Part shown: one piece after another, positions 1,559-38,485 of the stretch
Layout of the letters: each line of letters begins with the position of its first letter
Numbering within the stretch: the stretch's first letter is position 1
NCBI GenBank assembly: GCA_023129115.1
Contig: JAGMCR010000006.1
Location: 1-49,290, forward strand
Length of the DNA stretch: 49,290 bases
Source of the DNA: Candidatus Iainarchaeum sp.
GTDB lineage: Archaea > B1Sed10-29 > WALL01
Direction of reading: 5' to 3'
Position numbers and translations under genes: made by a program
The notes under the pieces: model-generated
What the model saw: the letters and a program-made list of their open reading frames with translations, nothing else
Told to the model about the DNA's origin: nothing
Database searches by the model: none

Positions 1559-1600
1559 TAATATGACAGAGTACTTGTTCAGGGACGCGCTGGACTCCCC

Positions 1601-1846: not shown

Positions 1847-1847
1847 C

Positions 1848-7293: not shown

Positions 7294-10200
7294 TTATTTT
7301 TTCGGTTTCCGGGCATGTCTCCTTTTCTTGGGTTTCAGCATTTTGGCGAGGGCTTGCCTCTTGGTGTAGAGCACTGCCGCGATTATCAGCACCGCGATGC
7401 CAATGGCCACGCTTGCCTCGAGCCCCATGAAGCCTGTCGCCACGCTTGCCACTTCTGCCTTTGGCGCGGGCGCGACTGGCTTCGGGGTTGGGGTGCTCTT
7501 GGCTGCCGCGGCGCCGGCTGCTTCTTTTGGCTCCGGTGTCGCAGTTGGCTCTGGAGCTGGCTCTTCGTGCTCAAGCACGGGGTCGCCCATCCCGCTTACG
7601 ATGTCCTGCAGCGTGTACCGGAGCATCTCTGTCGCGACGCTGTACCTGATGGTGACCGCGTCCCCGGCATCCACGTCGCCAATGTGGAACTGGAGCACCG
7701 GGTCGTCCTCGATTACAGTGTAGTCCGGACCGTCAATCACCAGGTCAGAGGCGCTTTGCGCGAAGCTCTTGGGTATGGTCACAGTGTACTCGACATTGCC
7801 CATGGCTTCGCCGAACTCGAGCGTTTCTACGATGACGCTGTCGATGTTGCTGTACTCGTTGGTGATGAACTCTACGTCATAGTCGTAATTCCTCGTCACT
7901 GCGACCGAGCCAACATGCTTCTTGGGGGGCCACTCAATCTGCTCTCCGGTGGAGGTGAATCCCTTGTCTTCTTCGGTGAGGGAGCCGCCGCCTCCTCCGC
8001 CTCCACCGCCCTTGGCTTTGCACTTCTTGTCTTTGCCGTCGCAGTCCTGGTCTATGCCGTCGCCGCATTTTTCTTTGGCGCCGGGGTGGATTGACGCGTC
8101 GTTGTCGTCGCAGTCCACGTCGCTGCCGTAGCCGTCGCCGTCAGCGTCGGGATAGTCTACTATGGCGCTGGCGCTTTTTTCGCTGGTGCCGCTCGTGTCA
8201 TTGTATTGGAAGCCGCAGCTGATGTTGTCGTTGACGTTGGTGGAATTGGCGTAGATTATAAAGGAGCAATGGACGTCGTAGAACGTCCCTGAGGTGCAGC
8301 TTACAGGGCTTAGGGTCAGGTTGGCTGGAGTAACCCAGATGGTCAGGTTCATGAGCGGCACGCCGTCGTAGTCCACCACGTCTCCTTGGCACGTGATGTC
8401 CGTGTCGTTGCGTGGGCTGGATGGGGCCAGTGTAACGGACGTTACTTCGCCAGGGTATTCCTGTACAGTGGTTGTCGCGTTCTTTATTGTGACCGACACG
8501 CCGTCGTCTGCCTTAGCTTGGCAGGTTAGGTTGTCGCCGGCCACGAATGATGTGTTGGCGTCGATGGGGTTGGACAGGCTGATGTTGCTCAGCACGCCTA
8601 TTGACGTGCCGTTGAGCAGCCACACCCCATAGCTCACGGCCACGCTCGGCGCTTCGGTCGTGGATGCGCTCGCGCTGCATGTGATGGTGCTTCCAGCATG
8701 CGGGCTTGGGGTAATCGACAGGCTTAGCGAGGGCGGCTGCACGAGCACTTTCAGCGACGCGTTGAGGGTGCTGCTGTTCTCCATGCCGTCGCTCTGCACG
8801 GCGTAGCACGTGAGGTTGTCCCCGTCGGAATAGCTTGCCTTCGCCAGAAAGGCGCTCGTGTGGCTCAGGGCCGTCCCGTTCCGCTCCCACGAGTAGTGCG
8901 TGGTATGGGTCTGCCGGATGTAGTCGTTCGATTCATCCGTGCTCAACAGCGACATATTCGTCGTCGCCGTGCACTGCACACCAGTATAATTCCTCGTGAG
9001 AGAGATTGAATGAATCACTGGGAGGGAGTTGATAATGTCTACTTCGTAATCAATTTTCTGATTCCCAGCGTGGTCACTTACATTCACGCGGATGTACCTT
9101 GTCCCCCTCCCAGTGATAGTATAATTTGTGTTATTCAGCAATGGTGTGCTCGGCGTGCATGTATTGCTTGAGGCTATACAATACGTGGCGATTGGGTTTG
9201 GGTCGAGGTTGTCTGAGAAAATTGCACTGAAGTTGAGATTGGGCCAGCCATCAATTACATTGGGGTGCGTTATACTCACACTCGGCTTCACAGTGTCGTC
9301 ACATCCCTTGGCATAGGCATACCCGACTTCGTAAGGGCAGTTGTCGTTGACGTCCAGGACTCCATCGTTGTCGTCGTCTGTGTCACAAGCGTCGCCGTCG
9401 CCGTCCGAGTCGTAGTCGGTTTGGTTGTTGTTGGATACATAAATACAGTTGTCTGTGCTGTCCCCAATTCCGTCACTGTCATAGTCCGTTCCCGTGGCGC
9501 CCCACGCGAAGAAATAGTCCTCACTGGCGTTGGTGCCGAAGTCATACGCGATGTTCACGTATCCACTTTTGCCCCAGGAAGTCCCCCAACTATTCTTGAC
9601 TATCCAGTACTCCCCGGTCTCGTTGTAGCCAGTGATTGCCATGGCGTGGTAACCCCGGAGTGTGCCGGAGGTATGGGAATAAATCCCGCTGCCGTAAGAG
9701 TAAAAGTCAAAATACACTGGAAACCCATTCATCACCACGGGCCCGTCCTCGAGTAATTTCCTTATGTCGTCCTTTTCGTCGTATCCGCTTGCGGTCGCGT
9801 CGTGTGTATACCAGCTCGTAAGCCCAGTGATTTTCTTGGTACGCTTGGCCCAGTCGCTGCACCGGATGAAGCAAGGGGAGTTGCTCGCTGTGTAAGCAAA
9901 GCAGGACTCGTCAGTGGTACCAGTGTCCCGTATGTACGCAAACGCGGAATAGGTGTTGCCGCCGGAGCAGCTGCCCTTTCCAGAGCAGGAAACGAGAAAC
10001 TGCTCGGATAGGTCCAAGTTTGGGTAGCTCAAGCCCCGGTTCCCAAACTCTACGTTGTACATTCCTTCGGTGACGGCGACTGATGCAAAAGCCCAGCAGC
10101 TTCCGCAGGTCTTTTGGTCCCTCACATTTGTCATGTTGGCCTTCCAGTTGATGTACGCTGGCGACGCCCCGTCGCGACCGCTTCGGGACATAGCCATCGC

Positions 10201-10380
10201 CGTGGGCGTCATCCTCCCGGGCATTTCTTCCCTTTCCTGCATGAGCTTGGGTGGGTTGTGCATAACCGGATTGTCCGCGGCAACCCAACTCGCGTTGTTC
10301 GTCTCTATGGCCTCTTGTATCTCGGCCAATCCAGCAACCGAGAGCGAAACCAGCAACAGCAAAACAATTATTTTTTTCAT
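7294..10380 (-). CDS. Membrane-anchored surface papain-like (C1A) cysteine protease with TSP3-like Ca-binding repeats, Ig-like stalk and MopE-like repeat
   Basis: Signal peptide; [24 protein letters not shown]; [14 protein letters not shown] repeats; [24 protein letters not shown]; poly-Gly, Pro/Thr linker, C-terminal TM helix and basic tail. Confidence 0.9.
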
Positions 10381-13289
10381 CAGTTATCCCCTCTCTTAAA
10401 CGTGTAGTACTTGGCATTCCTGTACGAGTCAAGGAAATTGGCTTCTTCCCTGAGCCAGTCCCCTATATCTTTTTCGATGTATATCCTGTCCCTCACGACC
10501 GAGTTGCCGTAGGCCTTGTGGAGCTCGCGCCAGATGCCAGCGGCGTGGAACTTGCCTTCCTTTGCCTCGAGCCCTACCGCGATTTGCTTCACGAGCTCTG
10601 TCTTGCGGCGCCTGCTGGCCGGGAACTTGAGGGGCATTGCAATGGGCTTCGGCACGGGCTTCTTTGCCGTCAGCCTGATTAGCCTGCGCACCTTTACCTT
10701 TGGCGCAGCAGAGATTATTATTGCTTTCTTTTTGTAGGCAAACACAGCCACCAAAAACAGCAGCAGCCCCCACGCGAACGGCCCCGTGGCAAGCCCAAGG
10801 AGCCCGGTGAAGTCCGCCTTCTCCGGCGCCGGTGATGGGACAGACGTTGGCTTTGGTGTGGGCGTTGGCGTGGGCACAATCGGCACAGCAGCAATCACTG
10901 GCGTGGGCTCTTCGTACCTGAGTTTTGGCACCCCCATCCCAAGCACCAATTCCTGCATTGTGTACTTCAGGACCTCGGTTTCTATAATATACTTTATAGA
11001 CACTGTTTCGCCTGCCAACACATTTCCGATGTGCAGCTGCAGCACGGGGTCTTCCTCGAGCACAGTATGCTCTGCTCCCTCGACCGTAATCTCCGAAGCG
11101 TGCTCTGCAAACCCCTTTGGAATCTCAATAGTGTATTCCACATTCCTGAGCTCTCCGCTGAACTCAACGTCTTCGGTTATGTACGTGTCAATCTCGCTGT
11201 ACTCGCTCGTGATGAACTTCGAGTCGTAGCCGAAGTCACGTGTGAGTGTTGCCACCCCCAAGTCAATTACGGGGGGCCACACAATTGTCTCGCCTGTGGA
11301 GTCAACGCTTTTGTCTTCTTCGGAGAGGCTTCCGCCTCCCCCTCCGCCACCCGGGTCGTTTTTATTTTTGTTTTTGAGTGCGCAGTCAACGCACTTTTTT
11401 CCTGCGGGCGCACTGCCGTCACACTTCTCTGCGCCCTCCACAATGCCGTTGCCGCAGTATGCGGCAACTATGGCCGTGGCGTTGCTGGCAGTCGCGTCGA
11501 TGCCGTCGCTGGCAGTTACCTCGCATACAAACTCGTCGCCGAAGGAAACATTCTTCCCTGAAACGATAGTTCCCGCGCTGCACAGCGTGGCATTGGTGCA
11601 GTTGACAGTAGAGTCCCACGCCGCCACATGCGCGCCGTTCTTGTGCCACCTGGCGGTTGCGGTGAAGCTGGCTTCCTCGATGTCGATTAGCTCCCAGCTG
11701 CAGGACAGGCTCGTGTTGCGGTAAGCCGGAGCAGTTATCGAGTGGCTCTCGAACCTGGGCGGGTAGTTCGCGATTATGATTGTGCCTGTTTTGGTTTCGG
11801 TGTCAATCCCGTCCGTCGCGTTTACCTTGTAACTCACATTGTCTCCGCGCGTGTAGCCGTATGCCTTGGGGAACGAAAATCCTGTGTTGGGAGTGAGTAT
11901 GCTATTCAGCCACCACTGCCACACCACAGTCAGCGTGTCATTGTCCAAGTTGTATATGTCGGCAGTAATCGCAACGTCCTCGTTCGAATAGTAGGATGGC
12001 TTCTCACTCAAGTCAATCACGGGCGGCGCGTTCACTATCGTCGTGGTGGCGTACTTCATCGGTGCACACTCGCCGACTTGATCACAAGCCCTGAAGCCAA
12101 ACTTGACAGTGTCGCCTACCGCGAAGCCGCCTTCGGAGGGGGAAAAAGTTGAAGAATTGTGCCAGTTGCCTTCAAGCATTGTTTCATTCTTCTTCGTCAC
12201 ACTGTTGACCCACCAAGTAAGCACAGAACCCTTTTGCGTGAAGTTGTCCACGTGCCCGTAGTCCCCAAACCCGGTCAGCGTTGTGATGCGGTACGGGCTC
12301 GTGGGCGTGATTGTGACGTTTTCGACGTATGGGCCGTATGACATGGTGAAGTTGCCTGTGGCGGCTTCGGAGCAGTCCCAGTCATAGTCGTCGCACACGA
12401 ACATGTAATATTTGTTGGTCTCATTCTCGGTGCCTGTGAGCGTGAAGGAGCAGCTTATCGAGTTTGGCGCGGTCATCCAGCCGCTTGTTTGGCACCACGT
12501 GCCGTTGTCGCACGTGCCGTTGCTGATGTAGCTGGTGTTGCACACGCGGAGCTTTCCATAGTCGCCGTCCGTGTCGTTCCAGGCAGTGACGTTGAACACA
12601 AGCTTGTTCCCTCCTTTTTTCAGCCCGCTCGGCCCGGTGAACGAGTCAATCACGGGAGCGTAGTTGTAGCTATATGTGAGGTTTATGGGTCGAAGTTCGT
12701 GGAACTGAGGCTGTGATGCGACGGAAGTCCAGCCACGACTCCCTCCAAGCTTCGCCTTAAGTTTCATCTCGCCGTCGGTTGCGTTAATGTATTTTGCCGC
12801 GGTCGCGCCGGAAAAACCCTTGGTGTCTGTGTGCGCATTTATCTTGGCTGTGATTGGAACGGCGGTGGTCCACCCGCCGGTATCGTAATTCTTGACCTTG
12901 GCGTAACCACTGGTCCCCCATCCGGAACTGATACCTTTGGTCTTCGCCTCAAAAAAGACCCCGGCCACATCCCGCTCATCTGGATCGCCTTTCAACGGCC
13001 AGTCAAGCGTGACCCACGAGATAAGCGTGACCTGGGCATAGCCCCCGTTGTTTTGTACGTACTTGTAGGTACTCATGCTTTTGTCGAACGCCTTGAGCTT
13101 GTTGTTGCAATCACACGTATACGCACCGTTCGCCCAAGTGCACCGCGTGTCGCTCGTGTCGCAGCTGTAATTAACTGTCGAATAAGTAGCCGAGCTATAC
13201 GTCAAAGTCTCTTGATGCGGCCCACCCAGCGCGAATGCCGCGCTAAACAGGCACACTATAAATATCGCTACCGCAATGTCTCTCCCCAT
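10380..13289 (-). CDS. Large cell-surface glycoprotein with Ig-like repeats, Cys-rich motif, TM anchor and cytoplasmic tail
   Basis: Signal peptide from MGRDIAV with GAGGTGA SD upstream; many NxS/T sequons; [15 protein letters not shown]; C-terminal domain paralogous to the neighbouring protease. Confidence 0.8.
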
Positions 13290-13363
13290 CCTATTCACCT
13301 CGCATGGTAGAGCTACCACACTTAATAGTTAGACACTCTTCTAGTATTTAATTGATACGGTGG

Positions 13364-18937: not shown

Positions 18938-20173
18938 TCACGCCTCGGTCTTGATGATGATGCCGCTGCCGACCACGTCCATGTCCCTCTCGAGGACGAA
19001 CCTGCCGATTCCAGGCGTCTCCTCGAAGCGCTCGATGGCCAGTGGCTTCTCGACCTTTATCACGGCCTCCGCGACCTCGGTCTCTTCAATGACGTCCACC
19101 CCGTCCGCATTAATGTCGAGGCTGGACGAGTTCATGCGCTTCAGCACGTCCACGGTGCACATGGCCTCTTCGGTCGCGCACTTTATCTTCAGGCGCTCGC
19201 CGTTCTGCATTGGCTTCTTGGAAATCCAGAAAATGTTTGCACGGAACTCCTGCGTGACCGGGGTCTCCTGGCCCTCGTGGACCAAGAGGTTCCCGCGCTC
19301 GATGAACAGCGCGTCCTCGGTAGTGATGCCAATGCTCTGGCCTGCCTCTGCCTGCTGCAGCTGTGCCTGCCAGACCTCGATGCTTTTTATTTTGGTCTTT
19401 TCCTTGCTGGGCAGCACTATTACAGTGTCGCCTGGAGCTATTTTTCCGGTCTCGACCCTGCCGACGAAAATCCTTTTTCCGTCGATTTTGTAGGCGTCCT
19501 GGATCGGGAACCGCATGGCCTGCTCGACTGGCGCGGGGGTCGGCTTGAACGAGTCAAGCGCCTCGAGCACGTTCTTGCCCGTGTACCACTCCATGTTCTC
19601 GCTGTGGCTCGCGACGTTGTCGCCCTTCTTCGCCGAAATTGGGATGTAGTACTCGGCGGTGATGCCCATGCCGCCGAGGAATTCGCTGAGCTCGGCCTTG
19701 ACTGCGCTGAACTTTTCCTCGCTCCAGTCCACTTTGTCCATCTTGTTCAGGACGGCCATGACCTGGCTAATCCCGAGCAGGTGAAGGATGTAGGCGTGCC
19801 TCTTTGTCTGCTCTTTCACGCCCTCGTTCGTGTCCACAATCAATACAGCCGCCTCGGCCTGTGACGCGCCGGTAATCATGTTCTTCAGGAACTCTTTGTG
19901 GCCGGGCGCGTCAATGATTACGTATTTTTTGTTCTCGTCCTCGAAAAAGGTCTGGGCAGTGTCGATTGTGATGTTCTGCTCCCTCTCTTCCTGCAAGTGG
20001 TCCATCAAGTACGCGAACTCGACTTCCTGGCCAGTCTTTTCGCACAGTGCCTCGATTTCTTCCATCTTGCCCTGGGGCAGCGACTTGGTGTCGTAGAACA
20101 ATCGCCCGATTAGCGTGGACTTGCCGTGGTCGATGTGCCCGACGAAAACAATGTTAAGGTCTTCTTTTTCCAT
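18938..20173 (-). CDS. cysN: Sulfate adenylyltransferase GTPase subunit (no fused CysC)
   Basis: [27 protein letters not shown]; directly downstream of cysD. Confidence 0.9.
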
Positions 20174-20183
20174 TCAAATCACC

Positions 20184-20987
20184 TCACATGTACCCCAGCG
20201 CACGCAGCTTCTGCATGATGTACGCGGACTCCTTGTCCTGCGCCCTTCCCGAGCGCTCGGACGTATTCGTGGTCCGGAGCTCTTCAACTATTTCGTCGAC
20301 AGTGCTCGCGTTCGACTCAATGGGGTTGCAGCAGGGGTGGCACCCGATGCTCCTGTACCTCTTGCCGTCCTTCGCGAAGTACAGGTCAATGATTGGTATG
20401 TTCTCGCGCTTGATGTAGTCCCAGATGTCCCGCTCGGTCCAGTGCAGTATTGGGTGGACGCGGATGTGGTCCTCGCTGCCGACTTCGGTCTTGTACTTGT
20501 CCCACAGTTCTGCGGGCTGGTCCTTGTAGTCCCACTTGAAGTCCTTGTTGCGCGGCGAGAAAACCCGTTCCTTCGCGCGAATCCCGTGCTCGTCCCTGCG
20601 GATTCCGAGCAGCACTGCCCCGAGGCCGTGCTCCTTGAGGGTCATTTTGAGGGCGTTGGTCTTGAGCTCGGTGCAGCAGGTGAGCTTCGTGCCCTTGTCC
20701 GGGCCCATGCCACCAGCGACGGCGGCCTCGTTCTTGCCGACGATTAAGTCCAGTCCCCATTCCTTTGCGTACTTCTCCCTGTACTCGTAAATCTCCTTGA
20801 ACTTGTACGTAGTGTCGATGTGCACGGCGGGGAACGGTATTTTCCCGTAGAATGCCTTGCGGCACAGCCACAGCAAGGTGGTCGAGTCCTTGCCGATGCT
20901 CCACAGCAGGCCAATGTTGTGGAACTGCTTGTACGCCTCCCGAATAATGTAAATGCTCTTGCTTTCCAGGCTGTCAAGATGGTCCAT
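20184..20987 (-). CDS. cysD: Sulfate adenylyltransferase subunit 2
   Basis: LESKSIYIIRE, WSIGKDS, HIDT, RRDE..RAKERVFS, YRSIGC, ERSGRAQD. Confidence 0.93.
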   Translation of the reverse strand: MDHLDSLESKSIYIIREAYKQFHNIGLLWSIGKDSTTLLWLCRKAFYGKIPFPAVHIDTTYKFKEIYEYREKYAKEWGLDLIVGKNEAAVAGGMGPDKGTKLTCCTELKTNALKMTLKEHGLGAVLLGIRRDEHGIRAKERVFSPRNKDFKWDYKDQPAELWDKYKTEVGSEDHIRVHPILHWTERDIWDYIKRENIPIIDLYFAKDGKRYRSIGCHPCCNPIESNASTVDEIVEELRTTNTSERSGRAQDKESAYIMQKLRALGYM

Positions 20988-21046
20988 GCTAATCCCTTCC
21001 TTTAATTACCCGTAACTATATTTAATTAACTATTTAAAGGTTCCGC

Positions 21047-21820
21047 CTAGCCGAACATTTCCATAATAGCCCTGTAAACGTCCCCAGGCTGCTTTATTTC
21101 GCAATCCAAGCCCTTCGTGATTATGATGGCCTCTTCGTGGTGGTCGCCCTTCAGCCTCTGGCCGTCCGCGGCAACGTCTGGCAAGGTCTTGTCCCTCGCC
21201 TCCCCAACGCCGCAGAACCCGTGGTCAGAAATCACAATGACTTTCTCGGCCTTGTCCACGAACTCCCCAATCGCGGAGTCAACCAGCTTGTACCACTCCA
21301 GCACGTACTCGTCCTCGCCCCAGTGGAAGTGCTGCACCCGGTCCAGGTGGTTGTAGCAGACAATCGCGCACTCGGGGCTCGAAGCGAGAATTTCTTTTGC
21401 CTTCGCAGTTATGCCTTCAACATCCTGCCTCAGCTCGGCCTCGTCCTTGGAAGCGCCGAACCCCGGCGGCATGTAGTCGCAGTTCCAGTTGAACGGCGGA
21501 ATCACGAACGGCACCTGCAGCGCCACTATCTTGTCCGGAATCTTGTCCCAGCAGAACTCGACCGGGATGTCGTCGCGCGACTGCAGCTTCCCGTCCTTGA
21601 CGTACTTCTCGTGGCCGTGCTTGCTCCCCGGCACGCCCGAAAACATCGTGGTCCAAATCGCGGGGGAGATTACGGCTTCCCCTTCAGGGAGGACAATGGT
21701 GCCTGATTTTCCTTCCCCACACAGCTTCTTGAACACCGGCAAAGAATCCAAATTGGGCTTGATTACCTTCCACGTCGCGCCGTCTACCCCAATCACCAAA
21801 AGCTTCGTCACAAAAATCAC
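21047..21820 (-). CDS. Alkaline phosphatase superfamily (NPP-like) protein 1
   Basis: IGVDGA, ISPAIWTTMFSG, DRVQH, SDHGF, GDHH. Confidence 0.85.
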   Translation of the reverse strand: MIFVTKLLVIGVDGATWKVIKPNLDSLPVFKKLCGEGKSGTIVLPEGEAVISPAIWTTMFSGVPGSKHGHEKYVKDGKLQSRDDIPVEFCWDKIPDKIVALQVPFVIPPFNWNCDYMPPGFGASKDEAELRQDVEGITAKAKEILASSPECAIVCYNHLDRVQHFHWGEDEYVLEWYKLVDSAIGEFVDKAEKVIVISDHGFCGVGEARDKTLPDVAADGQRLKGDHHEEAIIITKGLDCEIKQPGDVYRAIMEMFG

Positions 21821-22036
21821 CTAGATATAGTCCAGTGCCTTTAACCGCCTCTTGATTTCGTCATGGTCTTCCTTTTTGAACCCTTTCGACTTCTCGCGCA
21901 TCTCAGCAGACGAAACAATCTGCCTCAGCACGTAAGTAGTATAGTCGCTTACCGAGCGGAACCCCGTGCCCTCAATGCGCTTCTTTATCTTCTCGCCGAG
22001 TTCCACGGGGATGGAAACAGTGGTATGACGTGCCAT
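21821..22036 (-). CDS. Small CopG/RHH protein with C-terminal EIKRRLKALDYI motif
   Basis: TTVSIP..GFRSVSDY ribbon-helix-helix pattern. Confidence 0.85.
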   Translation of the reverse strand: MARHTTVSIPVELGEKIKKRIEGTGFRSVSDYTTYVLRQIVSSAEMREKSKGFKKEDHDEIKRRLKALDYI

Positions 22037-22061
22037 AATGATATTCAATTAAGAGAGTTAT

Positions 22062-22370
22062 TTATTTGTTTGCCCTCTCGAGCATCTCCAGAATCTGCCC
22101 CTCTGTCACGGAGCCGACGCTCCGCTCCTCTTCCTTGCCGTTCCTGAAGATGGCCAGCGTTGGGACGCCGTAAATGTCGTACTTCTTCGCGGTGATTGGG
22201 TTGCGGTTCACGTTCACGCTGCATATCTTGACGTCGACTTCCTTCTCGAGCCGCGCAATCACTTCCTCAATGGTCTTGCACGGCGGGCACCACGACCCCC
22301 AAAAGTCGACGAGCACTACCCAGTCGTAGTTCTCGACTTCCTGCTTGAACGTCTTGTCAGTGACTTCCAT
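22062..22370 (-). CDS. trxA: Thioredoxin
   Basis: VDFWGSWCPPCK, GVPTL. Confidence 0.93.
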   Translation of the reverse strand: MEVTDKTFKQEVENYDWVVLVDFWGSWCPPCKTIEEVIARLEKEVDVKICSVNVNRNPITAKKYDIYGVPTLAIFRNGKEEERSVGSVTEGQILEMLERANK

Positions 22371-22373
22371 GCC

Positions 22374-23885
22374 TCACGCCCCCCTCCGGAGCACTCCCTC
22401 GAAGCCCTCCTTTTCCTTGCTCCCGGGCTCGTACACCTCAAGCGTGCCGGACTCCTTCTTCATGCCGCTCCACCGCGTCTTTGGCATGATGGTGTGCTTC
22501 TTTTCCTCGAGCCGCTTCTTTACCTCTGGCTGCAGTAGCACCTCGAACATCCTCTCGACCTCTTTTTCCAGCGTGACGCCCTGCTCGAACCCGAACTCGT
22601 TCGGCAGCTTCTTCGACACCACTTCCAAGGGGTGCTTCTCGGACTCGACACGCGGGTTCTCGATGCGCTGTATTTTTATCTCAAGCCCGAACTTTTCCTT
22701 GCCCACGCGGGCAACGGCCTCGGCGATGTCGCTGACCTTGAACAGCCCCGACACCTGGTTGACCACGTCATACTGGCCGGGCTCCGGCGGCGAGAAAATC
22801 AGGCGCACCATGCACTGCATCGCGTCGTCCAGCGCGATGAACGCCCGTATCTGCTCCCCCCTCCCATAAATCGTGAGTGGCATCCCCAGCACTGCCTGCG
22901 CGACGAACCGGTTGACGACAGTGCCGAACCATTCGTCCATGTCGAACCGCGTCTTCAGCCGCGGGTCCGTGGCAATCTCATCGGTGTGCACGCCGTAAAT
23001 CACGCCCTGCATGATGTCATAAGACCGCAGCCACCAGTACTTGCACGCCTCGTACACGTTAAACGTGTCCTGGACCTTGCTGCAGTGGTAGAAGCTCACG
23101 GGGTCCCTCGGCGTCAGCTCGCCGCCAAGGCTCCACTTCCTGCCCTTCCACTCGAGCGCGGCGTCGCTCGGGAAAATCCCTTCGAACAATGGCCTCCCGG
23201 TCAGCGGCGCGCCGTACTCGCCCATGGTCCCCAGCTTTATCAGCGAGGCCTCGGGCGCAATGTCCTTCATTATGAAAAGCACCCCCAGCGTCCCCAGCAC
23301 GTTGTTCTCCTGGACCTTGATTGCGTGCTTCGCGTCCACCATGCTGTATGGCGCGCTCGGGCACTCGGCGTAGTGCACGATTGCCTCTGGCTTGACCTCG
23401 TCCATAAACTCGCGGAGCTTGTCCCTGTCCATCACGTCTATGCGCCTGAAGTTGATGTCAATCCCGTGGACCTCGCGTGCCGCGTGCAGCCTGTCCGTCA
23501 TCCTCTCAATCGGCACCACGGTGTGGGAGCCCTTTTCCGCGACGCAGTCCCTGCGCCAGTAATTGTCCACGCCGCTGACCTTGCACCCCAGCTTCCCGAG
23601 CTTGAGAGCGAGCGCCCACCCGAGATAGCCGTCAATCCCGAGAATCATTACTTTCATGTTCTTGAGCATGTAGCCGTAGTCGCCCTCCTCCCACTCCGGG
23701 CAGTCCTCGAAGGTAATCGTGGGCTCGAAGTGCCCGAGGCCGGGCCTCCGGCGGCACTCAATCATTATCTGTGCGTTTTCCGCCTCGATGTTCCTCGACT
23801 GGCCGCACGCCGTGAAGTCCACGTTTCCCTTGAACTTCGCGGCGGGGCAGTTCCAGCAGGTCTTTTTCGCGTTGATGCAAGCCAT
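22374..23885 (-). CDS. sqdB: UDP-sulfoquinovose synthase (SqdB/Agl3) with ~76-aa Cys-rich N-terminal extension
   Basis: GIDGYLGW, PSAPYSM, KLGTMGEYG, SFYHCSK, QGVIYG, FGTVVNRF, NPRVE. Confidence 0.92.
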   Translation of the reverse strand: MACINAKKTCWNCPAAKFKGNVDFTACGQSRNIEAENAQIMIECRRRPGLGHFEPTITFEDCPEWEEGDYGYMLKNMKVMILGIDGYLGWALALKLGKLGCKVSGVDNYWRRDCVAEKGSHTVVPIERMTDRLHAAREVHGIDINFRRIDVMDRDKLREFMDEVKPEAIVHYAECPSAPYSMVDAKHAIKVQENNVLGTLGVLFIMKDIAPEASLIKLGTMGEYGAPLTGRPLFEGIFPSDAALEWKGRKWSLGGELTPRDPVSFYHCSKVQDTFNVYEACKYWWLRSYDIMQGVIYGVHTDEIATDPRLKTRFDMDEWFGTVVNRFVAQAVLGMPLTIYGRGEQIRAFIALDDAMQCMVRLIFSPPEPGQYDVVNQVSGLFKVSDIAEAVARVGKEKFGLEIKIQRIENPRVESEKHPLEVVSKKLPNEFGFEQGVTLEKEVERMFEVLLQPEVKKRLEEKKHTIMPKTRWSGMKKESGTLEVYEPGSKEKEGFEGVLRRGA

Positions 23886-25102
23886 TAGTAATCACCGATT
23901 GCTTTTGTGACGTCCTCGACCGAAGGGCCTTCCGGCACCTTGGCGTTGGTGAGTATGAATGCGTCCTCGTACGTGTGGTGGCCGGCCAACGGGCTTGGGT
24001 ACATCTTCTCTCCCCCGATTTGCGCGCGCAGGTTCCACCCGCTCTCGCACAGCAGCACAATGTCCGGCGCGTTGCCTATATTCTTGCCGCGGTAAATCTC
24101 GTCCCTGCGGAACACGCGCTTCACAAACTCCTGCCCCTTGAACAGGGCCCCAATCTCGTCCACGACCTTTTCCTCGTCCGCCTTCGCGACGCTCCCGCGC
24201 GGGTAGCGCCCCTCGCGGTGCACGTAAATCCTTGACGGCTCCATTGCGAACGCCCTTGTCCCCTCGGCAATCCTGCCGTAGCCTCTTCCTTCGCCGAGCT
24301 TGAGCAGCCCCGCCTCCTCGAGCAGCGCGTTGATGTTGACGTTCGTCTTCGCTTTTTCCATTCCGTGGTCCGAAATAATCACGAGCCGGTCGTCCTCGCC
24401 CATTTTCCCCGTGATTTCGCCAATCACTTCGTCCACGCGCGCGAAATAGTCCAGAAACCCCTGGTGGAACTCGTGGCCATCGTCCTCGTATGCGTCCCAG
24501 AGGTAGTGGCCGAGCCGGTCGCTTCCCGTGAACACGAAAGTGAACATGTCCCACTTCTCTTTTTCCCAGAAGTGGCGGTACGCCTTTATCCGCGCCTCGT
24601 TTGTCTTGTTCAACTCGCTCATGAAGAGGAGCTTGGACTCCTTGGCCTTCTCGGTGTCGACGTCTACTTTGTATCCCATCTCCTGGAGCGCCGGGAGCGC
24701 GCTGGCGGGGTACACTGCCTTCTCCAGGTCGGGCGCGACGAATCCCGCGATGTGCACGCCGTTCATTTCCCGGGCGGGGTAGGTCATCGGCACGTTTATG
24801 ACAACGTGCCTCCCCCCCCTTTCCCAGTAGGGCTTTGCTTGCAGATGCATGTAGTTCGGAAAAAACATGTTGTAGGTCCCGGGCATGAGCTCGGTGAAGC
24901 CGTAGATGCCGTGCTCGCCGGGGTTCTCCCCCGTGATTATGGTGGCCCATGACGCCGAGGACACCTCGGGCAATGTAGACTTCATCTGGGCAAAAGTGCC
25001 CTGGCTGCGCAGGTCCTTGAAATTGGGCATTATTCCCTTGTCCGAGAGCGTTTCCATCATCCCGTAGGGAACGCCGTCAATGCCGATAACAACAGTCCTC
25101 AT
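23885..25102 (-). CDS. Alkaline phosphatase superfamily (NPP-like) protein 2
   Basis: IGIDGV, PEVSSASWATIITG, DRLGH, SDHGM, APDI, GHH. Confidence 0.88.
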   Translation of the reverse strand: MRTVVIGIDGVPYGMMETLSDKGIMPNFKDLRSQGTFAQMKSTLPEVSSASWATIITGENPGEHGIYGFTELMPGTYNMFFPNYMHLQAKPYWERGGRHVVINVPMTYPAREMNGVHIAGFVAPDLEKAVYPASALPALQEMGYKVDVDTEKAKESKLLFMSELNKTNEARIKAYRHFWEKEKWDMFTFVFTGSDRLGHYLWDAYEDDGHEFHQGFLDYFARVDEVIGEITGKMGEDDRLVIISDHGMEKAKTNVNINALLEEAGLLKLGEGRGYGRIAEGTRAFAMEPSRIYVHREGRYPRGSVAKADEEKVVDEIGALFKGQEFVKRVFRRDEIYRGKNIGNAPDIVLLCESGWNLRAQIGGEKMYPSPLAGHHTYEDAFILTNAKVPEGPSVEDVTKAIGDY

Positions 25103-25113
25103 CAACCCACACT

Positions 25114-25952: not shown

Positions 25953-27470
25953 GTGTCGGACCAGCTAGTTAAAAAAGTTGCGAAGGGAGCAGGCATAATG
26001 TTCGCCGGCCTCATGCTCGGGAGATTCATTGATTTGATGTACCGGATCTTCCTCGCCCGCGCCCTCTCGCCAGCAGAATACGGTCTCTTTTTCCTCGCTT
26101 ACAACATAATCTTCGTGGCCTCTACCGTGGCAATCGGCGGCTTCCCCCAGGGGCTCATGCGCTACGTCGCCTACTACAAGGGCAAGAAAGACAAGGCGCG
26201 GGTAAAGGGTGTCATGATAGACGCCGGTCTCGTGATGGCTGGCCTGGGCGTCGTTTCTGGAGCTATCGTATTCCTGCTCGCCGAATGGCTCGCGTCCCTG
26301 TTCCATACTCCAGGGCTCACTCCAATCTTCCAGATAGTCGCATTCTTCCTCCCAGCCCAAGCGCTTTTCCTGTATTCCAAAAGCGTGCTCGAGGGATTCC
26401 AGCGGCTCAAGTACTGGTTCTACGGCGAGATAATCTCCACTCGCTTGTTGCGGCTTGTCCTGACAATTGTGCTGGTCTCACTTGGATTTGGCTTACTTGG
26501 CATCTCCCTAATATTTGTTTTTACAGTCGCCATTGGGTTTGTGGTAATGGCCTGGTTTGCCAGCAAAAAAGTTTTTCCTAATTTCCGTAAAATCAAAGCA
26601 GTCCATGGGGCAAGGGAGTACCTATCTTTTGCTGCGCCGCTGTTCTTCTCCAGCAGCATACTCGCGATTTCTGGTCACATAGACACAATCATGATTGGCT
26701 TATTCATGAGCACTGCAAGCGTTGGATTCTACAATGTTGCCCTCCCACTTGCAGCTCTGCTGCGAATGTTCTTAGCATCATTTAACGGCATTTTTGCACC
26801 AATGACCACGGAATTATTTGCAAAAAACAAAATGAAGGAGGTAGGGGCGCTGTACAAGTCAGTCACCAAGTGGGCGTTCATGTCGGCATGGCCAGTGTTC
26901 CTCCTGTTCTTTGCCTTCCCTGGCCAAGTGATTGAATTGTTCTTCGGTCCGGGCTATGGCTCCGGCGCAATCGCCCTCGCAATCCTCTCGGTTGGCTACC
27001 TCGTCAACACCGGCGTGGGCTCTGCGGGCGTCCTGCTGCTCGCGTCCGGCAAGCCAAAGCTATTGTTAATCAATAACGCGGTGATTGCCGTGCTGAACAT
27101 TGCGTTCAACTGGCTGCTCATCCCGGTCTTTGGCTTGGTCGGCGCCGCTGTAGCAACGTCGTTTTCTGTCTCGGTGATAAACCTGCTGATGCTGGCCGAG
27201 GTCAAGGAATTCCTCGGGTTCCATCCATACAAGAAGAGCTTCCTCCGGCCGCTTGCGGCAGGAGTCGTCGCGGCAATAGCCGCGTACGCGGGGTTCGCGG
27301 CGACTGGAATGTTTATCGCGGCGGCAATCGGCTTCGCCGCGCTTTACATTTTGCTGGTGTTCGTGTTCAAGTCGTTCGAGAAAGAAGACTTGGTTATTGC
27401 CACTGCAATCGAGAAAAAGCTGGGCTGGGGCACTAGGATGAGTGGCTTCCTGGGCAAGTACTCTGCCTAG
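25953..27470 (+). CDS. Oligosaccharide flippase (Wzx/RfbX, MOP family)
   Basis: About 14 hydrophobic helices; LARALSPAEYG, IDTIMIG, VGFYNVA, LIPVFGLVGAAVAT. Confidence 0.9.
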   Translation: MSDQLVKKVAKGAGIMFAGLMLGRFIDLMYRIFLARALSPAEYGLFFLAYNIIFVASTVAIGGFPQGLMRYVAYYKGKKDKARVKGVMIDAGLVMAGLGVVSGAIVFLLAEWLASLFHTPGLTPIFQIVAFFLPAQALFLYSKSVLEGFQRLKYWFYGEIISTRLLRLVLTIVLVSLGFGLLGISLIFVFTVAIGFVVMAWFASKKVFPNFRKIKAVHGAREYLSFAAPLFFSSSILAISGHIDTIMIGLFMSTASVGFYNVALPLAALLRMFLASFNGIFAPMTTELFAKNKMKEVGALYKSVTKWAFMSAWPVFLLFFAFPGQVIELFFGPGYGSGAIALAILSVGYLVNTGVGSAGVLLLASGKPKLLLINNAVIAVLNIAFNWLLIPVFGLVGAAVATSFSVSVINLLMLAEVKEFLGFHPYKKSFLRPLAAGVVAAIAAYAGFAATGMFIAAAIGFAALYILLVFVFKSFEKEDLVIATAIEKKLGWGTRMSGFLGKYSA

Positions 27471-28432
27471 ATGTACCCCAGGTTCTGGAGGCTCTTGACT
27501 ATCTTTTCCTTGTCCACTTCTTTTTTCTGGGGCTTCGGCTCCCTTCCCTCTCCCGCCTTTATTTTCCTTTTTTTGTTCTTTATCCCTTTCGCCGCAATTC
27601 CTTTCATGATGCCGCGGAAGTCGAGTATTGACGGGTCTTTCAGGCCGAGCCTTGGCGTGCACGCGTAAAATGCGTAGTCGAGGTTCAGGTGCTCGCCGCC
27701 GCCGCTCTTCATTTCTTGCATGCCATGGTCGGACACAATCAAAAGCAGCTCGGGGTCGAACTCTTCGAGGATTTGCCTGGCGAAGTCGTTCATCTCCTTG
27801 TAGAGCGCGTACATGGTTTCCTTGTCGCTGAAGAAGAGGTGGCCCCACACGTCGGTTACGGGCGTGTACCAGAACAAGAGGTCCGGCTTTTCCTTCAGTG
27901 CCTTCAATGCCCCGGCCTTGCTTTTCCTGTGGAACTCGAGCGTCGCTTCCTTGTACTCCACCTCGGTTATCTCGTTCTTGAGGAACTTCTTCATCATTTG
28001 GTGCAGGTAGTCCTTTTCTTCCCTGGGCTGGTTGAACCCCGGGACAGAAAGGGCTTTGTAGCTCTTGAAGTCGCCCAAGAACGTTTTTTCGGCTGGGACT
28101 CGTATGTTCCATGATTCCTTGAAGTCGTAAATCTTTTCCATGGGCCGTATTTTGCCGGTGACTTTTTTCCTGGCTTTTTTCACGAAGCCAGGCTCGATTT
28201 CGATGTATTTTTTTCTAAATCCCTTGTAGTACGAGAAAACTTTTTTCCGCCCGCCGGCGACTTCCCTGAACATGTCCCTGCCGGTGAGGAACGAGCTCCA
28301 CATAATGGGGGTCACGGCCGCGCCTATGCCGCTTATGTCTGTCTTCCCGTATTCCTCCAGCTGCAGGTAGGGCAGCCCAAACTCTTTCACAAGATAGTAG
28401 TCCAATGCATCCATGCCAAGTATCACAATCAT
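27467..28432 (-). CDS. Alkaline phosphatase superfamily protein 3 with C-terminal KSLQNLGYI
   Basis: LGMDAL, VTPIMWSSFLTG, DVWGH, SDHGM, GEH. Confidence 0.8.
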   Translation of the reverse strand: MIVILGMDALDYYLVKEFGLPYLQLEEYGKTDISGIGAAVTPIMWSSFLTGRDMFREVAGGRKKVFSYYKGFRKKYIEIEPGFVKKARKKVTGKIRPMEKIYDFKESWNIRVPAEKTFLGDFKSYKALSVPGFNQPREEKDYLHQMMKKFLKNEITEVEYKEATLEFHRKSKAGALKALKEKPDLLFWYTPVTDVWGHLFFSDKETMYALYKEMNDFARQILEEFDPELLLIVSDHGMQEMKSGGGEHLNLDYAFYACTPRLGLKDPSILDFRGIMKGIAAKGIKNKKRKIKAGEGREPKPQKKEVDKEKIVKSLQNLGYI

Positions 28433-34461: not shown

Positions 34462-35463
34462 TCATTCCCCCCCAATTATGACGGGCTCGATGTCGACCTG
34501 CCTTATTTCTGTCATTCCCGGCCGCGTTGGGTTCAGCTGCGGCAGCGAGACCTCTTTCCCATCAACAATTTCAGTGATTGCCTGCGCCAGGTTCGCCCCT
34601 GCGCGGGTGTATAGCCATGGCCGGCCCGCGAGGCGGATGCCCACCTCGGTTATGTTCGGCACGCCGCCGCTGTCCTCCTTGATGTCAATCGAGACAATTC
34701 CCCTCGTCCTGAACTTTTTGCATACCTCCAGCCCGAGCTTGTTCAGGCGCTCGTCGTGCACTGTAATGCACCTGCTTACGTTTCCAGTGACGCCCGAGAC
34801 CGACACTTGCCTCATGAGGTACTCCAGCCGCTCCATGGACGCCGACGTGATGACCTCGCCGCCCTTCACGAGCGCGGTCCAGTTGAAGTTCCTGCCGGGC
34901 AGGTACTCGTGAATTACCCATTTCCAGTTCTTGTCCTTCCAGTAGTCGAACCAGTGGAGGGCGTGGTTGAGGTCCTTGACCATTATGCTCCCCCTCCCCC
35001 CGGCCCCTTCCGCGGCCCTCATCCAGAACGGCCCCTCGTGCTTTTCGAAGAACTCGCGTATGCCGTCCTCGTCCCCAACCTCCCGCGTGGCGGGGAAGTC
35101 GGCAAGCCCCTTGAGCAGCTCGTAGGTAAGGTGCTTGTTTATGCAATGCCGGGCGTACTCCTCGCCCATGAGGAAAAATTCGGCGTCAAAGTCCTTGCGG
35201 TGCGTGGCGATGTACTCGACCTCCGGGTCGGGATTGGACAACACGAGGTCGACCCGCTCCTTTTCGCATATCCTGTTGAACTCGGAGGTGAACTCCTCGG
35301 GTCTGCTCACCGGGGGGAGGAGGTATGCCGTGTCCACCAGGGCTTTCCCGAACTCGAGCTGGTACTTGCTTATGTCGCACACGACGACATCATGCCTGTC
35401 GCGCAGGCTCCTGATTATGTCGATGCCTATGTTCCCACCGCACCCCGTGACGAGGACTTTCAC
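34462..35463 (-). CDS. ATP-grasp ligase (333 aa)
   Basis: GTG start overlaps the upstream stop; VLVTGCGG, NK..TY, GAGGRG, HEYLPG, SIDIK, ITEVGIRLAG. Confidence 0.8.
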   Translation of the reverse strand: MKVLVTGCGGNIGIDIIRSLRDRHDVVVCDISKYQLEFGKALVDTAYLLPPVSRPEEFTSEFNRICEKERVDLVLSNPDPEVEYIATHRKDFDAEFFLMGEEYARHCINKHLTYELLKGLADFPATREVGDEDGIREFFEKHEGPFWMRAAEGAGGRGSIMVKDLNHALHWFDYWKDKNWKWVIHEYLPGRNFNWTALVKGGEVITSASMERLEYLMRQVSVSGVTGNVSRCITVHDERLNKLGLEVCKKFRTRGIVSIDIKEDSGGVPNITEVGIRLAGRPWLYTRAGANLAQAITEIVDGKEVSLPQLNPTRPGMTEIRQVDIEPVIIGGE

Positions 35464-36416
35464 AGCCGCATCACCTCGTTCATGCTGGCCGACTGCTCGG
35501 CGAGCAGAGCCACTTTCAGCGCGGCAGTGCCCTCGGCCAGCGTGCACGGGTTCTCGCCCCCGGAGCAGTAGTCGAGGAATGCACACAGCTCGCGCTTCAG
35601 CGGCTCTTCCCTCTTGACCACTATCTTTTCCGCGAGCCCCGCCTCGGTGTCGAGCGTGAACACGTCGTTCTCGACCTCTTTCTTGTAGGCATAAATGTTT
35701 TGGGTTATGTAGTTCAGGTAGAGGAACCTGTCCTCGAGCGTGACGTACAGGTTGCGAATCTTCCTTGGCGTTATCCAGTTGGTCAGCACTGTGCCGCTTA
35801 TGTTCTCGGTCGTGATGAACACGTGGCCCGAGTCGTCGTGCTCCTCCGTGAACACGCGCCGCGTCTTGGCGTACACTGTCCTTATGGGCTCCCCGCAGAG
35901 GTAAGGGATTATATCGAGCTCGTGAATGCCCATGTCCTTGATGACGCCGGTCTTGATTACCTTTGGGGGGTGTGGCCCCACGCGCATGGCGGACATGGCG
36001 ATTACCTTCTTGCCCTCGAGCAGCCCCTTCATCTTCTGAACCGCCGGGTTGAAGCGCTCGATGTGCCCCACCATCAGGGGTGTGCCGGTCTTTTCCGCGG
36101 CTTGGGCCAGGCTGTGCGCCTCCTCGAGCGTGTTCGCTACCGGCTTTTCGATGAGGAGGCCAATCCCCTTTTCGAGGAGCTCTGTGCCAATCTTGGCGTG
36201 CAGCGCCGTCGGGACCGCGAGGCTTACCGCCTCCGGTTTCTCTTTCTTCAGGAGGTCGTGGTAGTCCTTGTACGCCCTGGTGCCCCACTCGGACGCGAGC
36301 CCCTTTGCCCGCTTGATGTCAATATCGGCGATGCCAACGAGCTCCGAGCCAATCTCTGAATACGACTTGACGTGGTGCCTGCCCATGTTGCCGCTGCCGA
36401 TTACTGCCGTCCTCAT
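35460..36416 (-). CDS. Gfo/Idh/MocA oxidoreductase (UDP-HexNAc(A) 3-dehydrogenase, WbpB-like)
   Basis: GSGNMGRHH, IEKP, VGHIERFNPA, DMGIHELD, NWITP, EEPLKRE. Confidence 0.9.
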   Translation of the reverse strand: MRTAVIGSGNMGRHHVKSYSEIGSELVGIADIDIKRAKGLASEWGTRAYKDYHDLLKKEKPEAVSLAVPTALHAKIGTELLEKGIGLLIEKPVANTLEEAHSLAQAAEKTGTPLMVGHIERFNPAVQKMKGLLEGKKVIAMSAMRVGPHPPKVIKTGVIKDMGIHELDIIPYLCGEPIRTVYAKTRRVFTEEHDDSGHVFITTENISGTVLTNWITPRKIRNLYVTLEDRFLYLNYITQNIYAYKKEVENDVFTLDTEAGLAEKIVVKREEPLKRELCAFLDYCSGGENPCTLAEGTAALKVALLAEQSASMNEVMRL

Positions 36417-36865
36417 ATGTGCACCTCTTTCTCGTCCTTCAGCACCCCTGTCGCGAGGCTAATCTCGACTTTCCTGACGCCTGGCAGGCTAGTGATTACT
36501 TCGTTAGACATGCGCTGGAGCTTCTGCAGGTCTTCGGCTCTTGCCCTTGCCTGAAGGTTGTTCGTGCCCGTGGCTATCCACACGCTGTATACCTCGTCCA
36601 GGACGGCGAGCTTCTCCGCCGCCTCCTTCAGCTTCTGCGGCTCGACCTCAAGGCTTATCGAGAACAGCACAGGGTACCCCGCCTTGGCCGCGTCCAGCGA
36701 GAGCGTGAACTTCCGTATGATGCCCTCCTTCAGGAGGTTCTTCACGCGGTTGTGGATGGTCGCGTCGGACATCTTGAGCTTCTTCGCTATGGCCTTGAAG
36801 GATTCCCTGCTGTCCTCCTGGAGGAGCCTTATAATCTTGCGGTCAGTCTCGTCTAAAAAGCGCAT
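36413..36865 (-). CDS. Lrp/AsnC transcriptional regulator
   Basis: LDETDRKII.LLQED.R..F..IA HTH followed by a RAM domain. Confidence 0.93.
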   Translation of the reverse strand: MRFLDETDRKIIRLLQEDSRESFKAIAKKLKMSDATIHNRVKNLLKEGIIRKFTLSLDAAKAGYPVLFSISLEVEPQKLKEAAEKLAVLDEVYSVWIATGTNNLQARARAEDLQKLQRMSNEVITSLPGVRKVEISLATGVLKDEKEVHI

Positions 36866-37039
36866 GTCTAAGTTTTTGACTAGGTTATATTAAAAACTTT
36901 CATCCCGAAAGCCACCCTATTAGATACGCTAAGTTCTTTTAGGTATTATTTTAGCATATTCTAATATAATGCCTGCAATCACTATGCCTTTCTAAATTCC
37001 TGGAAACCTTTATAAAGGATGTGGGGCTTAACTCTGGCC

Positions 37040-37825: not shown

Positions 37826-37831
37826 GTGGCC

Positions 37832-38485
37832 ATGGGAGTAGCGATTGAGTGCGGCCCGGAGAACGCCAGAATGGCGAGGGAGCGGGGAGACCAGGTCATC
37901 GTCGTGGACTCGCTGCGCGCCTGTTCCACCATAGTAACTGCGCTGGACAGGGGCGCCACAAAAGTAATCCCCGTGGAGGCCCCAAAGGAGGCCCGCGCCT
38001 ACACCGGGCGGGACGGCTTCGCCACCGCCGGGGAGCGCGGCGGCCAAAAGATTGACGGCCTGGACTTCGGCAACTCCCCAGTCGAGCTCTCGCGCGCGGA
38101 CCTCAAGGGCAGGGCACTCGTCCTCACGACCACAAATGGCACCCGCTGCATCCGTGCCGCGGGTCGCGGCTGCCTCATCGGCTCGCTGCTGAACGCGTCT
38201 GCCGTGGCCGCGGAGGTGAACGGCAGGACAACCATAATCGTGGCGGGGAGGAACGGCGCCCCCTCGCCGGAGGACGTGGCTACGGCGGAAGAAATCGCTT
38301 CGGCCGCGTGCGGCACCCCCACCCGGGAAGAATTCACGGCGCTGTTCATGGCTTCGGCGGCGGGGAAGCGCCTCTCCCAGCTGGGCTATTCCGAAGACGT
38401 GAAGTTCTGCGCGAGAAAAGACGTTTACGACGTGGTCGCGGTGTTCGACGGCGAGGCCATCTTCTTATACGACCACGAGGACTAA
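37832..38485 (+). CDS. comB: 2-phosphosulfolactate phosphatase
   Basis: VVDSLRACSTI, GERGG, GNSP, LTTTNGT, ED; directly after comA. Confidence 0.92.
   Translation: MGVAIECGPENARMARERGDQVIVVDSLRACSTIVTALDRGATKVIPVEAPKEARAYTGRDGFATAGERGGQKIDGLDFGNSPVELSRADLKGRALVLTTTNGTRCIRAAGRGCLIGSLLNASAVAAEVNGRTTIIVAGRNGAPSPEDVATAEEIASAACGTPTREEFTALFMASAAGKRLSQLGYSEDVKFCARKDVYDVVAVFDGEAIFLYDHED

Follow-up and report, generated by a model that had tools for sequence, protein, structure and literature searches.

Results

Organisation of the operon

Seven genes on the minus strand of contig JAGMCR010000006.1 from Candidatus Iainarchaeum sp. (assembly GCA_023129115.1) are the subject of this analysis. The window, meaning the whole stretch of DNA that was analysed, has a length of 49,290 nucleotides, and the co-oriented genes occupy positions 18938-25105 in the order AlkP-long (AlkPL), SqdB, thioredoxin, a ribbon-helix-helix (RHH)-like protein, AlkP-short (AlkPs), CysD and CysN. 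The spacing between them ranges from a 1-nt overlap to 59 nt, and because the genes nearly abut they were regarded as one operon. A first-pass annotation, made from the DNA letters, had given the same genes, order, orientation and coordinates, all of which were confirmed.

The operon begins with AlkPL (23885-25105, alternative start at 25102), an NPP/PhnA-like bimetallo enzyme of 405-406 amino acids. It is followed by a long form of the UDP-sulfoquinovose synthase known as SQD1, SqdB or Agl3 (22374-23885, 503 amino acids), a thioredoxin with the motif WCPPC (22062-22370), the small RHH-like protein (21821-22048, 75 amino acids) and AlkPs (21047-21820, 257 amino acids), a compact paralogue of AlkPL. 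The set is completed by the small subunit of sulfate adenylyltransferase, CysD (20184-20987), and its GTPase subunit, CysN (18938-20173, 411 amino acids).

Sulfate activation and the inventory of sulfur genes

CysD scored 357 bits against NF003587 (cut-off 195) and 263 bits against TIGR02039, which is below the cut-off of 396.6. CysN, encoded 10 nt from CysD, scored 345.7 bits against TIGR02034 (cut-off 336.1) and 164 bits against GTP_EFTU, and has no CysC (APS kinase) domain. From family membership it follows that the two subunits produce adenosine 5'-phosphosulfate (APS). An adjacent pair of CysD and CysN was also found in 17 genome loci and at least 39 metagenome loci. The CysD of the window aligns with the Pseudomonas protein (1ZUN) at an E value of 5e-68 and is about 30 residues shorter.

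The assembly comprises 1.25 Mb in 19 contigs, of which the window is contig C16, and it is 88.6% complete, so that absences are provisional. No CysH was found in it; the PF01507 profile matched CysD and, weakly, a TtuA/NcsA-like tRNA thiolase and GuaA. The assembly also gave no APS kinase (PF01583), no Sat, no NIR_SIR sulfite reductase and no sulfotransferase of the type dependent on 3'-phosphoadenosine 5'-phosphosulfate (PAPS), represented by Sulfotransfer_1 (PF00685) and Sulfotransfer_3 (PF13469). Searches of the genome by tblastn with proteins from related loci detected neither a TauE-like permease nor sulfatase-family genes. A thioredoxin-reductase-like gene is present. The organism activates sulfate and has two sulfite-dependent enzymes, SqdB and ComA, but no recognised route from APS to sulfite or PAPS. 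The first-pass annotation had noted that CysH and CysC are missing from the window; this absence extends to all 19 contigs, and the search left standing its idea that the AlkP proteins act on APS as sulfo-transferases.

AlkPL and its neighbours

Three proteins in the assembly score above the gathering cut-off of PF01663 (23 bits), all of them within the window: AlkPL (154 bits), AlkPs (57.6 bits) and a third protein, AlkP3 (42 bits). A fourth match on contig C9 is below it, at 20.5 bits. The residues D10, S49, D196, H200, D246, H247 and H377 of AlkPL are invariant in sets of 20 and 25 homologues, and the two-metal ligand set and the position of the serine nucleophile are all retained. S49 aligns with a PhnA position that is threonine in one and alanine in the other of the entries 3szy and 3t02, and which we take to be the catalytic threonine of PhnA, so the nucleophile motif claimed in the first-pass annotation is borne out for AlkPL. 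The structure model is confident, with a mean predicted local distance difference test score (pLDDT) of 92.5, and the nearest solved folds are the C-P hydrolase PhnA and the NPP/ENPP enzymes, with template modelling (TM) scores of about 0.6 at 14-18% identity. Members of the AlkPL family are about 50% identical across archaea and bacteria and are annotated only as 'alkaline phosphatase family protein' or as 'AlkP superfamily phosphohydrolase/phosphomutase'. No characterised member of the family (COG3379) was found in the open-access literature, where the one paper naming COG3379 is unrelated.

A scan of species-representative genomes with AlkPL gave 515 relatives, of which the best 80 loci were kept. 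The long-form SqdB directly follows AlkPL in 49 of the 66 loci with at least 2 kb of downstream sequence, and CysN directly precedes it in 13 of the 59 with enough upstream flank. The hosts include Thermoplasmatota, Asgard groups, Hadarchaeota, Woesearchaeota, Omnitrophota, Chloroflexota, Planctomycetota and Saccharimonadota, among others. Short glycosyltransferases of family 2 (GT2), TrmB regulators, flippases and NTP-transferases are further recurrent neighbours.

AlkPL is also found beside sulfate-activation genes where SqdB is missing. In two loci (L042 and L056) CysD, CysN and AlkPL stand in this order at the start of a polysaccharide locus, where MarR-like and NusG-like genes come before AlkPL and Wzz comes after it. 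One locus (L057) has the order CysD-TauE-CysN-AlkPL, with the TauE permease between the two subunits, and another (L074) the order CysD-x-CysN-AlkPL-flippase. A metagenome-assembled genome (MAG) of Thermodesulfobacteriota has an APS kinase between a 27%-identical AlkP paralogue and an AlkPL orthologue (L037, positions 1103-4463). These arrangements tie AlkPL to sulfate activation independently of SqdB, and they favour an enzyme that acts on APS over one that acts only on the head of SqdB.

The long-form SqdB and its thioredoxin

Residues 75-476 of SqdB align with residues 10-398 of SQD1 (1i24) at an E value of 4.6e-80. The stretches GTMGEYG and SFYHCSK, which correspond to GTMGEYG and SFYHLSK in 1i24, are invariant in 25 sequences, and the alignment retains the catalytic-triad positions of SQD1 (T145, Y182 and K186) together with the adjacent H183, presumably a residue of the catalytic site. 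A Thr/Tyr/Lys triad is named for SQD1-type synthases in PMC4388408. The long-form SqdB shares 63-76% identity with 24 homologues that belong to other phyla. It was filed as a distinct long-form subfamily because it scores 425.7 bits against NF041015, under the equivalog cut-off of 575. The stop of AlkPL and the start of SqdB have 1 nt in common, and the two genes are translationally coupled.

The part that precedes the SQD1-like core is a head of about 75 residues (residues 1-77, positions 23655-23885), in which C10, C13, C27, C44 and C62 are invariant in all 47 long-form sequences. It is proposed here as a sulfo-carrier and docking domain. Modelled alone with AlphaFold, the head has poor confidence (pLDDT 52.6).

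An in-frame insert of about 900 nt was observed in the long-form SqdB genes of five loci (L006, L014, L016, L066 and L080), where the open reading frames (ORFs) have a length of 824-871 amino acids. The insert of L016, which was the one scanned, contains a LAGLIDADG domain, and the inserts are probably inteins.

Thioredoxin follows SqdB in 42 of the 47 AlkPL-SqdB loci with enough flank, and in three of the five exceptions an intein-bearing SqdB uses up the flank. The motif was WCTAC in 18 of 45 locus thioredoxins, WCPPC in 14, WCLPC in four, WCIPC in two and WCAPC in one, and was not found in six; WCGPC occurs in none of the 39 with a readable motif. The thioredoxin of the window has the CxxC motif and scores 85.9 bits against PF00085, for which it is the only strong match in the genome. 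Its score against the TIGR01068 equivalog is 87.7, below the cut-off of 96.8. It is a candidate for the reductant that would release sulfite.

Predicted complex of AlkPL and SqdB

AlkPL and SqdB were co-folded using our own alignments from the same 25 loci. The ipSAE interface score was 0.64, compared with 0.00 for the best of three controls. Of 80 solved complexes, 58 attain this mark, as do 2 of 110 mismatched pairs, a calibration that is approximate here as our own alignments were used. The runs had 91% or more of their contacts in common, and partner pLDDT was 91 or higher. On the SqdB side, the modelled interface consists of head residues 19-30, 32, 35, 38-39, 41, 50-54, 56-57 and 61. On the AlkPL side it includes residues 48-49, 193, 196-197 and 200-201, that is, the nucleophile and metal ligands, so that the active site of AlkPL is predicted to sit on the five-cysteine head. 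As a prediction, the model lends support to binding between the two proteins.

A quick tree contained a well-supported clade of seven AlkPL sequences of Desulfobacterota type without SqdB. It served as a consistency check on the interface. At strongly conserved positions, the consensus of this clade departs from that of the SqdB-adjacent group in 7 of 24 cases at the interface and in 11 of 174 elsewhere (Fisher p 0.002), and since this is a single clade, a single evolutionary event lies behind the p value.

The predicted contact could also mean that AlkPL regulates SqdB or helps it to mature, by gating or activating the synthase or by dephosphorylating its head. An interface that takes in both the active site of AlkPL and the loop of the head would suit such a role, as would the translational coupling of the two genes. 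It accounts poorly for the AlkPL orthologues next to cysDN in genomes that lack the long-form SqdB and for the invariance of the complete catalytic residue set, and it would leave no other consumer of APS in the operon. We consider this explanation very improbable.

AlkPs and the RHH-like protein

AlkPs is paralogous to AlkPL (24% identity, E value 7e-10) and trimmed in comparison with it, and protein atlas entries for it carry generic names of the kind 'phosphodiesterase of AP superfamily'. The residues D13, S52, D160, H164, D199, H200, C203, H227 and H228 are conserved in a set of 76 sequences, and they include the equivalents of the metal ligands and nucleophile of AlkPL. A metagenome scan with AlkPs yielded 296 relatives. 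Eighty loci were retained from it, and 52 of these had at least 600 bp of upstream sequence and were counted as informative. CysN lies directly upstream of AlkPs in 42 of the 52. In one of the remaining loci CysD comes directly after AlkPs, and another contains CysD/CysN fragments. Neighbourhood analysis, which the first-pass annotation had called for across archaea, identified both AlkP proteins as conserved partners of sulfate-activation or sulfoquinovose genes in many lineages.

The usual unit is a TauE-type permease followed by CysD, CysN and AlkPs, and nearby are sulfatase-family proteins (PF00884), GT2 and GT1 enzymes, an oxidoreductase and a flippase. In the loci L098-L122 and other metagenome loci, one or two PF00884 proteins (454-480 amino acids) and glycosyltransferases flank the unit. 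Neither SqdB nor thioredoxin was found in these clusters, and no APS kinase or PAPS sulfotransferase was present among the recurrent neighbours scanned. The gene content suggests that the TauE-CysD-CysN-AlkPs clusters may constitute an APS-based system for glycan sulfation.

A different explanation gives the AlkP proteins an ordinary phosphoryl-transfer role in glycan synthesis, with sulfite supplied by the host or the environment, or by way of a gene in the 11% of the genome that is not assembled. The fold neighbours described above (the NPP and ENPP phosphodiesterases and PhnA), the source annotation as phosphohydrolase/phosphomutase, the position of the loci in glycan islands with NTP-transferases, glycosyltransferases and flippases, and the incompleteness of the genome are all in keeping with it. 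This reading leaves unexplained the conserved order of CysN and AlkPs and the linkage of AlkPL to CysDN, CysC and TauE, and also why CysDN is kept in a genome without sulfite reductase or another use of APS. The predicted contact is moreover with the cysteine-rich head and not with a sugar-binding site. We regard this reading as improbable, and with it the particular activities that may be named: a phosphodiesterase for nucleotide sugars or lipid pyrophosphates, a sugar phosphomutase, or an enzyme that clears AMP or 3'-phosphoadenosine 5'-phosphate (PAP). A role of AlkPs in clearing pyrophosphate was judged unlikely, as this is already provided for by an H+-pyrophosphatase (H+-PPase), whose gene is present in the genome; no family I pyrophosphatase was found there.

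The RHH-like protein had no match in Pfam or NCBIfam, and it is called from its sequence pattern alone as a probable regulator. Its homologues adjoin cysD in several loci. They were found in L006, L022, L026, L030, L031, L038, L083, L089 and many of L098-L168, often two per locus, and the homologues listed, about 40, end in an RLxxLGY-type tail much like the one at the C terminus of the neighbouring CysD. The RHH-like protein might compete with or sense the interaction between CysD and CysN.

Cysteines of CysD and sulfate activation in other genomes

The CysD of the window contains four cysteines in the arrangement C104-C105...C216-x-x-C219. In 1ZUN the equivalent of C216 is present, without C104, C105 and C219. 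The CC...CxxC motif was found in 14 of 17 CysD proteins from genome loci and in all 35 of a second set (34 from metagenomes and the window's own), and it resembles the motif for the [4Fe-4S] cluster of assimilatory APS reductases.

Genome tallies cover 50 of the 80 AlkPL loci and are drawn from MAGs of unstated completeness. They include two genomes flagged as unpublished (L024 in G021 and L043 in G040), on which alone no claim is based. Canonical CysH is rare in the module-bearing genomes, being above the cut-off in 3 of the 50 and near it in two more. Sat was found in 32 and CysD above its cut-off in 16; one or the other was above the cut-offs in 45, or in 46 with the inclusion of one divergent CysD-like match, which at 150 bits is under the cut-off.

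These cysteines raise the possibility that CysD, as a putative protein of Fe-S type, is itself a hidden reductase. CysDN would hold the APS beside a [4Fe-4S] cluster, in the manner of assimilatory APS reductases, and attack by a thiol of thioredoxin or of the SqdB head would release sulfite. CysD shares the PF01507 fold with CysH and the motif is widespread. In CysH, the catalytic cysteine is located in the C-terminal tail; the tail of CysD contains no cysteine. Sat occurs in 32 of the module-bearing genomes and this CysD above its cut-off in only 16, which indicates that the trio of AlkPL, SqdB and thioredoxin often works without this CysD, and the predicted seat of the AlkPL active site on the SqdB head would remain unexplained. 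A corollary would be that the AlkP enzymes are APS-dependent O-sulfotransferases or other glycan modifiers outside sulfite supply, and sulfate esters are well suited to the AlkPs clusters with sulfatase-family and glycosyltransferase genes. On balance we find this reading, the main rival, unlikely.

The surrounding glycan island

The operon is surrounded by AglB, a GT4 enzyme, several glycosyltransferases, two methyltransferases, a flippase, an NTP-transferase, AlkP3 and the pair ComA and ComB. The AglB/STT3 oligosaccharyltransferase (39421-41652, minus strand; PF02516 50 bits and an AglB core domain) marks the region as an N-glycosylation island. AlkP3 (27467-28432, minus strand, 321 amino acids) is a more distant PF01663 protein with a partial profile match and weak similarity to AlkPs.

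ComA (phosphosulfolactate synthase) and ComB are adjoining genes on the plus strand (37019-38485; PF02679 302 bits, PF04029 178 bits). ComA itself (37019-37825) is the second sulfite-consuming enzyme of the island. The first-pass annotation had named SqdB and ComA as sulfite users; both are in the window, but ComA is situated outside the segment that was described. In the stretch 34462-38485 the pair is accompanied by genes for an ATP-grasp ligase, a HAD phosphatase, a DegT aminotransferase and a GFO oxidoreductase, a neighbourhood that suggests an amino sugar bearing sulfolactate as a second sulfonated component of the glycan.

Very long ORFs (873-1269 amino acids) were observed on the minus strand at 43099-46908, 7294-10380, 10380-13319 and 1848-4469. 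The one of 1269 amino acids was scanned and has no real family match. These ORFs possibly encode surface proteins that bear the glycan.

No AlkPL orthologue was found in 40 relatives, among them two congeneric genomes and three that share the family; three of the 40 have paralogues of 27-32% identity. The sulfur/glycan island has therefore probably been acquired, as a horizontal gain specific to this genome.

Discussion

The operon can be read as a route from sulfate to UDP-sulfoquinovose within the N-glycan island of a DPANN-type archaeon, in which the AlkP enzymes consume APS and AlkPL loads the head of SqdB. We put this forward tentatively, as an explanation whose prospects fall somewhat short of even. 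It is ranked first because the AlkP proteins are the only conserved, catalytically intact and uncharacterised enzymes that are tied both to APS production and to sulfite use.

The steps would be as follows. CysD and CysN produce APS, and the two NPP/PhnA-like AlkP enzymes would consume it in place of CysH and CysC. The active site of AlkPL, with its two metals and Ser49, is predicted to dock on the five-cysteine head of the long-form SqdB, and it may transfer the sulfo group of APS to a cysteine of the head, for which C27 in an inserted loop is the candidate, so that a protein S-sulfocysteine would result. The thiosulfonate intermediate of CysH is the analogy on which this step is proposed. 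The thioredoxin of the operon would then reduce the S-sulfocysteine and free sulfite beside the SQD1-like catalytic core, which would add it by the established chemistry of SQD1 and Agl3. AlkPs would run the same APS-consuming reaction for other acceptors, either to give sulfite for ComA or for O-sulfation of the glycan. The sulfo-transfer idea of the first-pass annotation is in part supported, by the genomic absences, the conserved partnerships and the predicted docking; as for the chemistry, every sulfuryl-transfer step is what we infer.

The more general claim is that AlkP-fold enzymes constitute an unrecognised class of APS-utilising sulfo-transferases, AlkPs working with the four-cysteine CysDN and AlkPL with the carrier head, while a dedicated thioredoxin channels the sulfite. 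This reaches further and is more doubtful; we would sooner expect it to fail than to hold.

Several observations weigh against the proposed route. The closest solved relatives of AlkPL transfer phosphoryl and not sulfuryl groups, and no cysteine of AlkPL is conserved in the sets of 20 and 25 homologues. Nineteen genomes have AlkPL without an adjacent SqdB; a long-form SqdB is encoded elsewhere in five of them, and 14 have none, nor was a free-standing SqdB-like head found in those 14 in a search with the head as query, which had no positive control. The enzyme must thus also work without the SqdB head. The AlkPs clusters in metagenomes contain no obvious sulfite user, and with their sulfatase-family and glycosyltransferase genes O-sulfation is a better fit than supply of sulfite. 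C203 is present in all 76 AlkPs sequences and C57 in 75, and the sole exception is the AlkPs of the window, which retains C203 and has Thr57 at this site near the nucleophile region. The thioredoxin, as the sole strong one of the genome, may also be the housekeeping thioredoxin. The four-cysteine motif of CysD, which the first-pass annotation had missed, offers another route to sulfite.

The compared genomes contribute two further points of this kind. Their completeness is unstated, so absences in them are provisional, and 18 of the 50 have PRK13795-type PAPS-reductase-like fusion proteins of 489-681 amino acids, which are common among the module-bearing archaeal genomes. Two that were retrieved (L169 in G044:C157 and L170 in G007:C77) consist of a PUA domain, a PAPS-reductase-like PP-loop domain and a 4Fe-4S ferredoxin domain. 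These proteins of about 600 amino acids were considered as hidden APS reductases and rejected, as a PUA domain is suggestive of RNA modification and none of them is encoded in the genome of the window.

The transfer of the sulfo group by AlkPL, as proposed here, can be compared with systems that are better known. CysH forms sulfite from activated sulfate by way of an enzyme S-sulfocysteine and uses thioredoxin as reductant. The CysD of the operon resembles it in fold and in the CC...CxxC motif. The proposal differs from CysH in that the sulfo-acceptor would be a domain of the consuming enzyme and the transferase would have an alkaline-phosphatase fold. With the NPP/ENPP enzymes and PhnA, AlkPL shares the fold, the two-metal ligands and the position of the Ser/Thr nucleophile. 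It differs from them in its low identity, in being cytoplasmic, in having serine instead of threonine and in a partnership with SqdB and CysDN that is kept at about 50% identity in both domains of life. The alkaline phosphatase superfamily is described as including sulfatases, and promiscuous sulfuryl transfer as known in it, in PMC3693508. The order of cysD, cysN and a third gene whose product would consume APS recalls the bacterial CysD-CysN-CysC operons. Here the third gene encodes AlkPs instead of APS kinase, and CysD is shorter and has four cysteines.

SQD1 of Arabidopsis, SqdB of cyanobacteria and Rhodobacter and Agl3 of Sulfolobus acidocaldarius share with the long-form SqdB the core of a short-chain dehydrogenase/reductase (SDR), the catalytic stretches and the expected reaction of UDP-glucose with sulfite. 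The long form adds the five-cysteine head and a C-terminal tail, and its gene is accompanied by those of an AlkP-type enzyme and a thioredoxin. In the known systems free sulfite comes from the general assimilation pathway, unlike in the route proposed here. The in vivo sulfur donor of SQD1-type enzymes has long been under discussion. PMC4388408 mentions a complex of SQD1 with glutamate synthase and states that Agl3, too, supplies an archaeal N-glycan. For Haloferax volcanii, Agl7 (HVO_2046) is reported in PMC3892788 to be required for sulfation of a hexose bound to dolichol phosphate. It provides a parallel for the modification of an archaeal N-glycan with sulfur by a protein that is not a recognised sulfotransferase; no link between Agl7 and the AlkP proteins of the window is established. 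A description of the SqdB-thioredoxin-AlkP-CysDN module was not found in open-access papers and preprints, and subscription journals may hold one.

The module bears on the unexplained source of sulfite for sulfonated sugars in organisms without assimilatory sulfate reduction. It spans many uncultured anaerobic lineages, including genome-reduced DPANN and candidate phyla radiation (CPR) members, in which it can be the only sulfate-activating pathway. At least five genes are kept for this purpose in a genome of 1.25 Mb, which argues that sulfonated or sulfated surface glycans matter enough to these organisms to be retained. If the AlkP enzymes do use APS, this would be new enzyme chemistry for the alkaline phosphatase superfamily, and thousands of annotations as 'alkaline phosphatase family protein' would need to be read again. 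The four to five soluble proteins would form a defined set that can be tested in vitro. Such a module would add to CysH and AprAB a third path by which APS yields sulfite, and it would also provide a PAPS-independent route to sulfated glycans that is widespread in uncultured archaea and bacteria.

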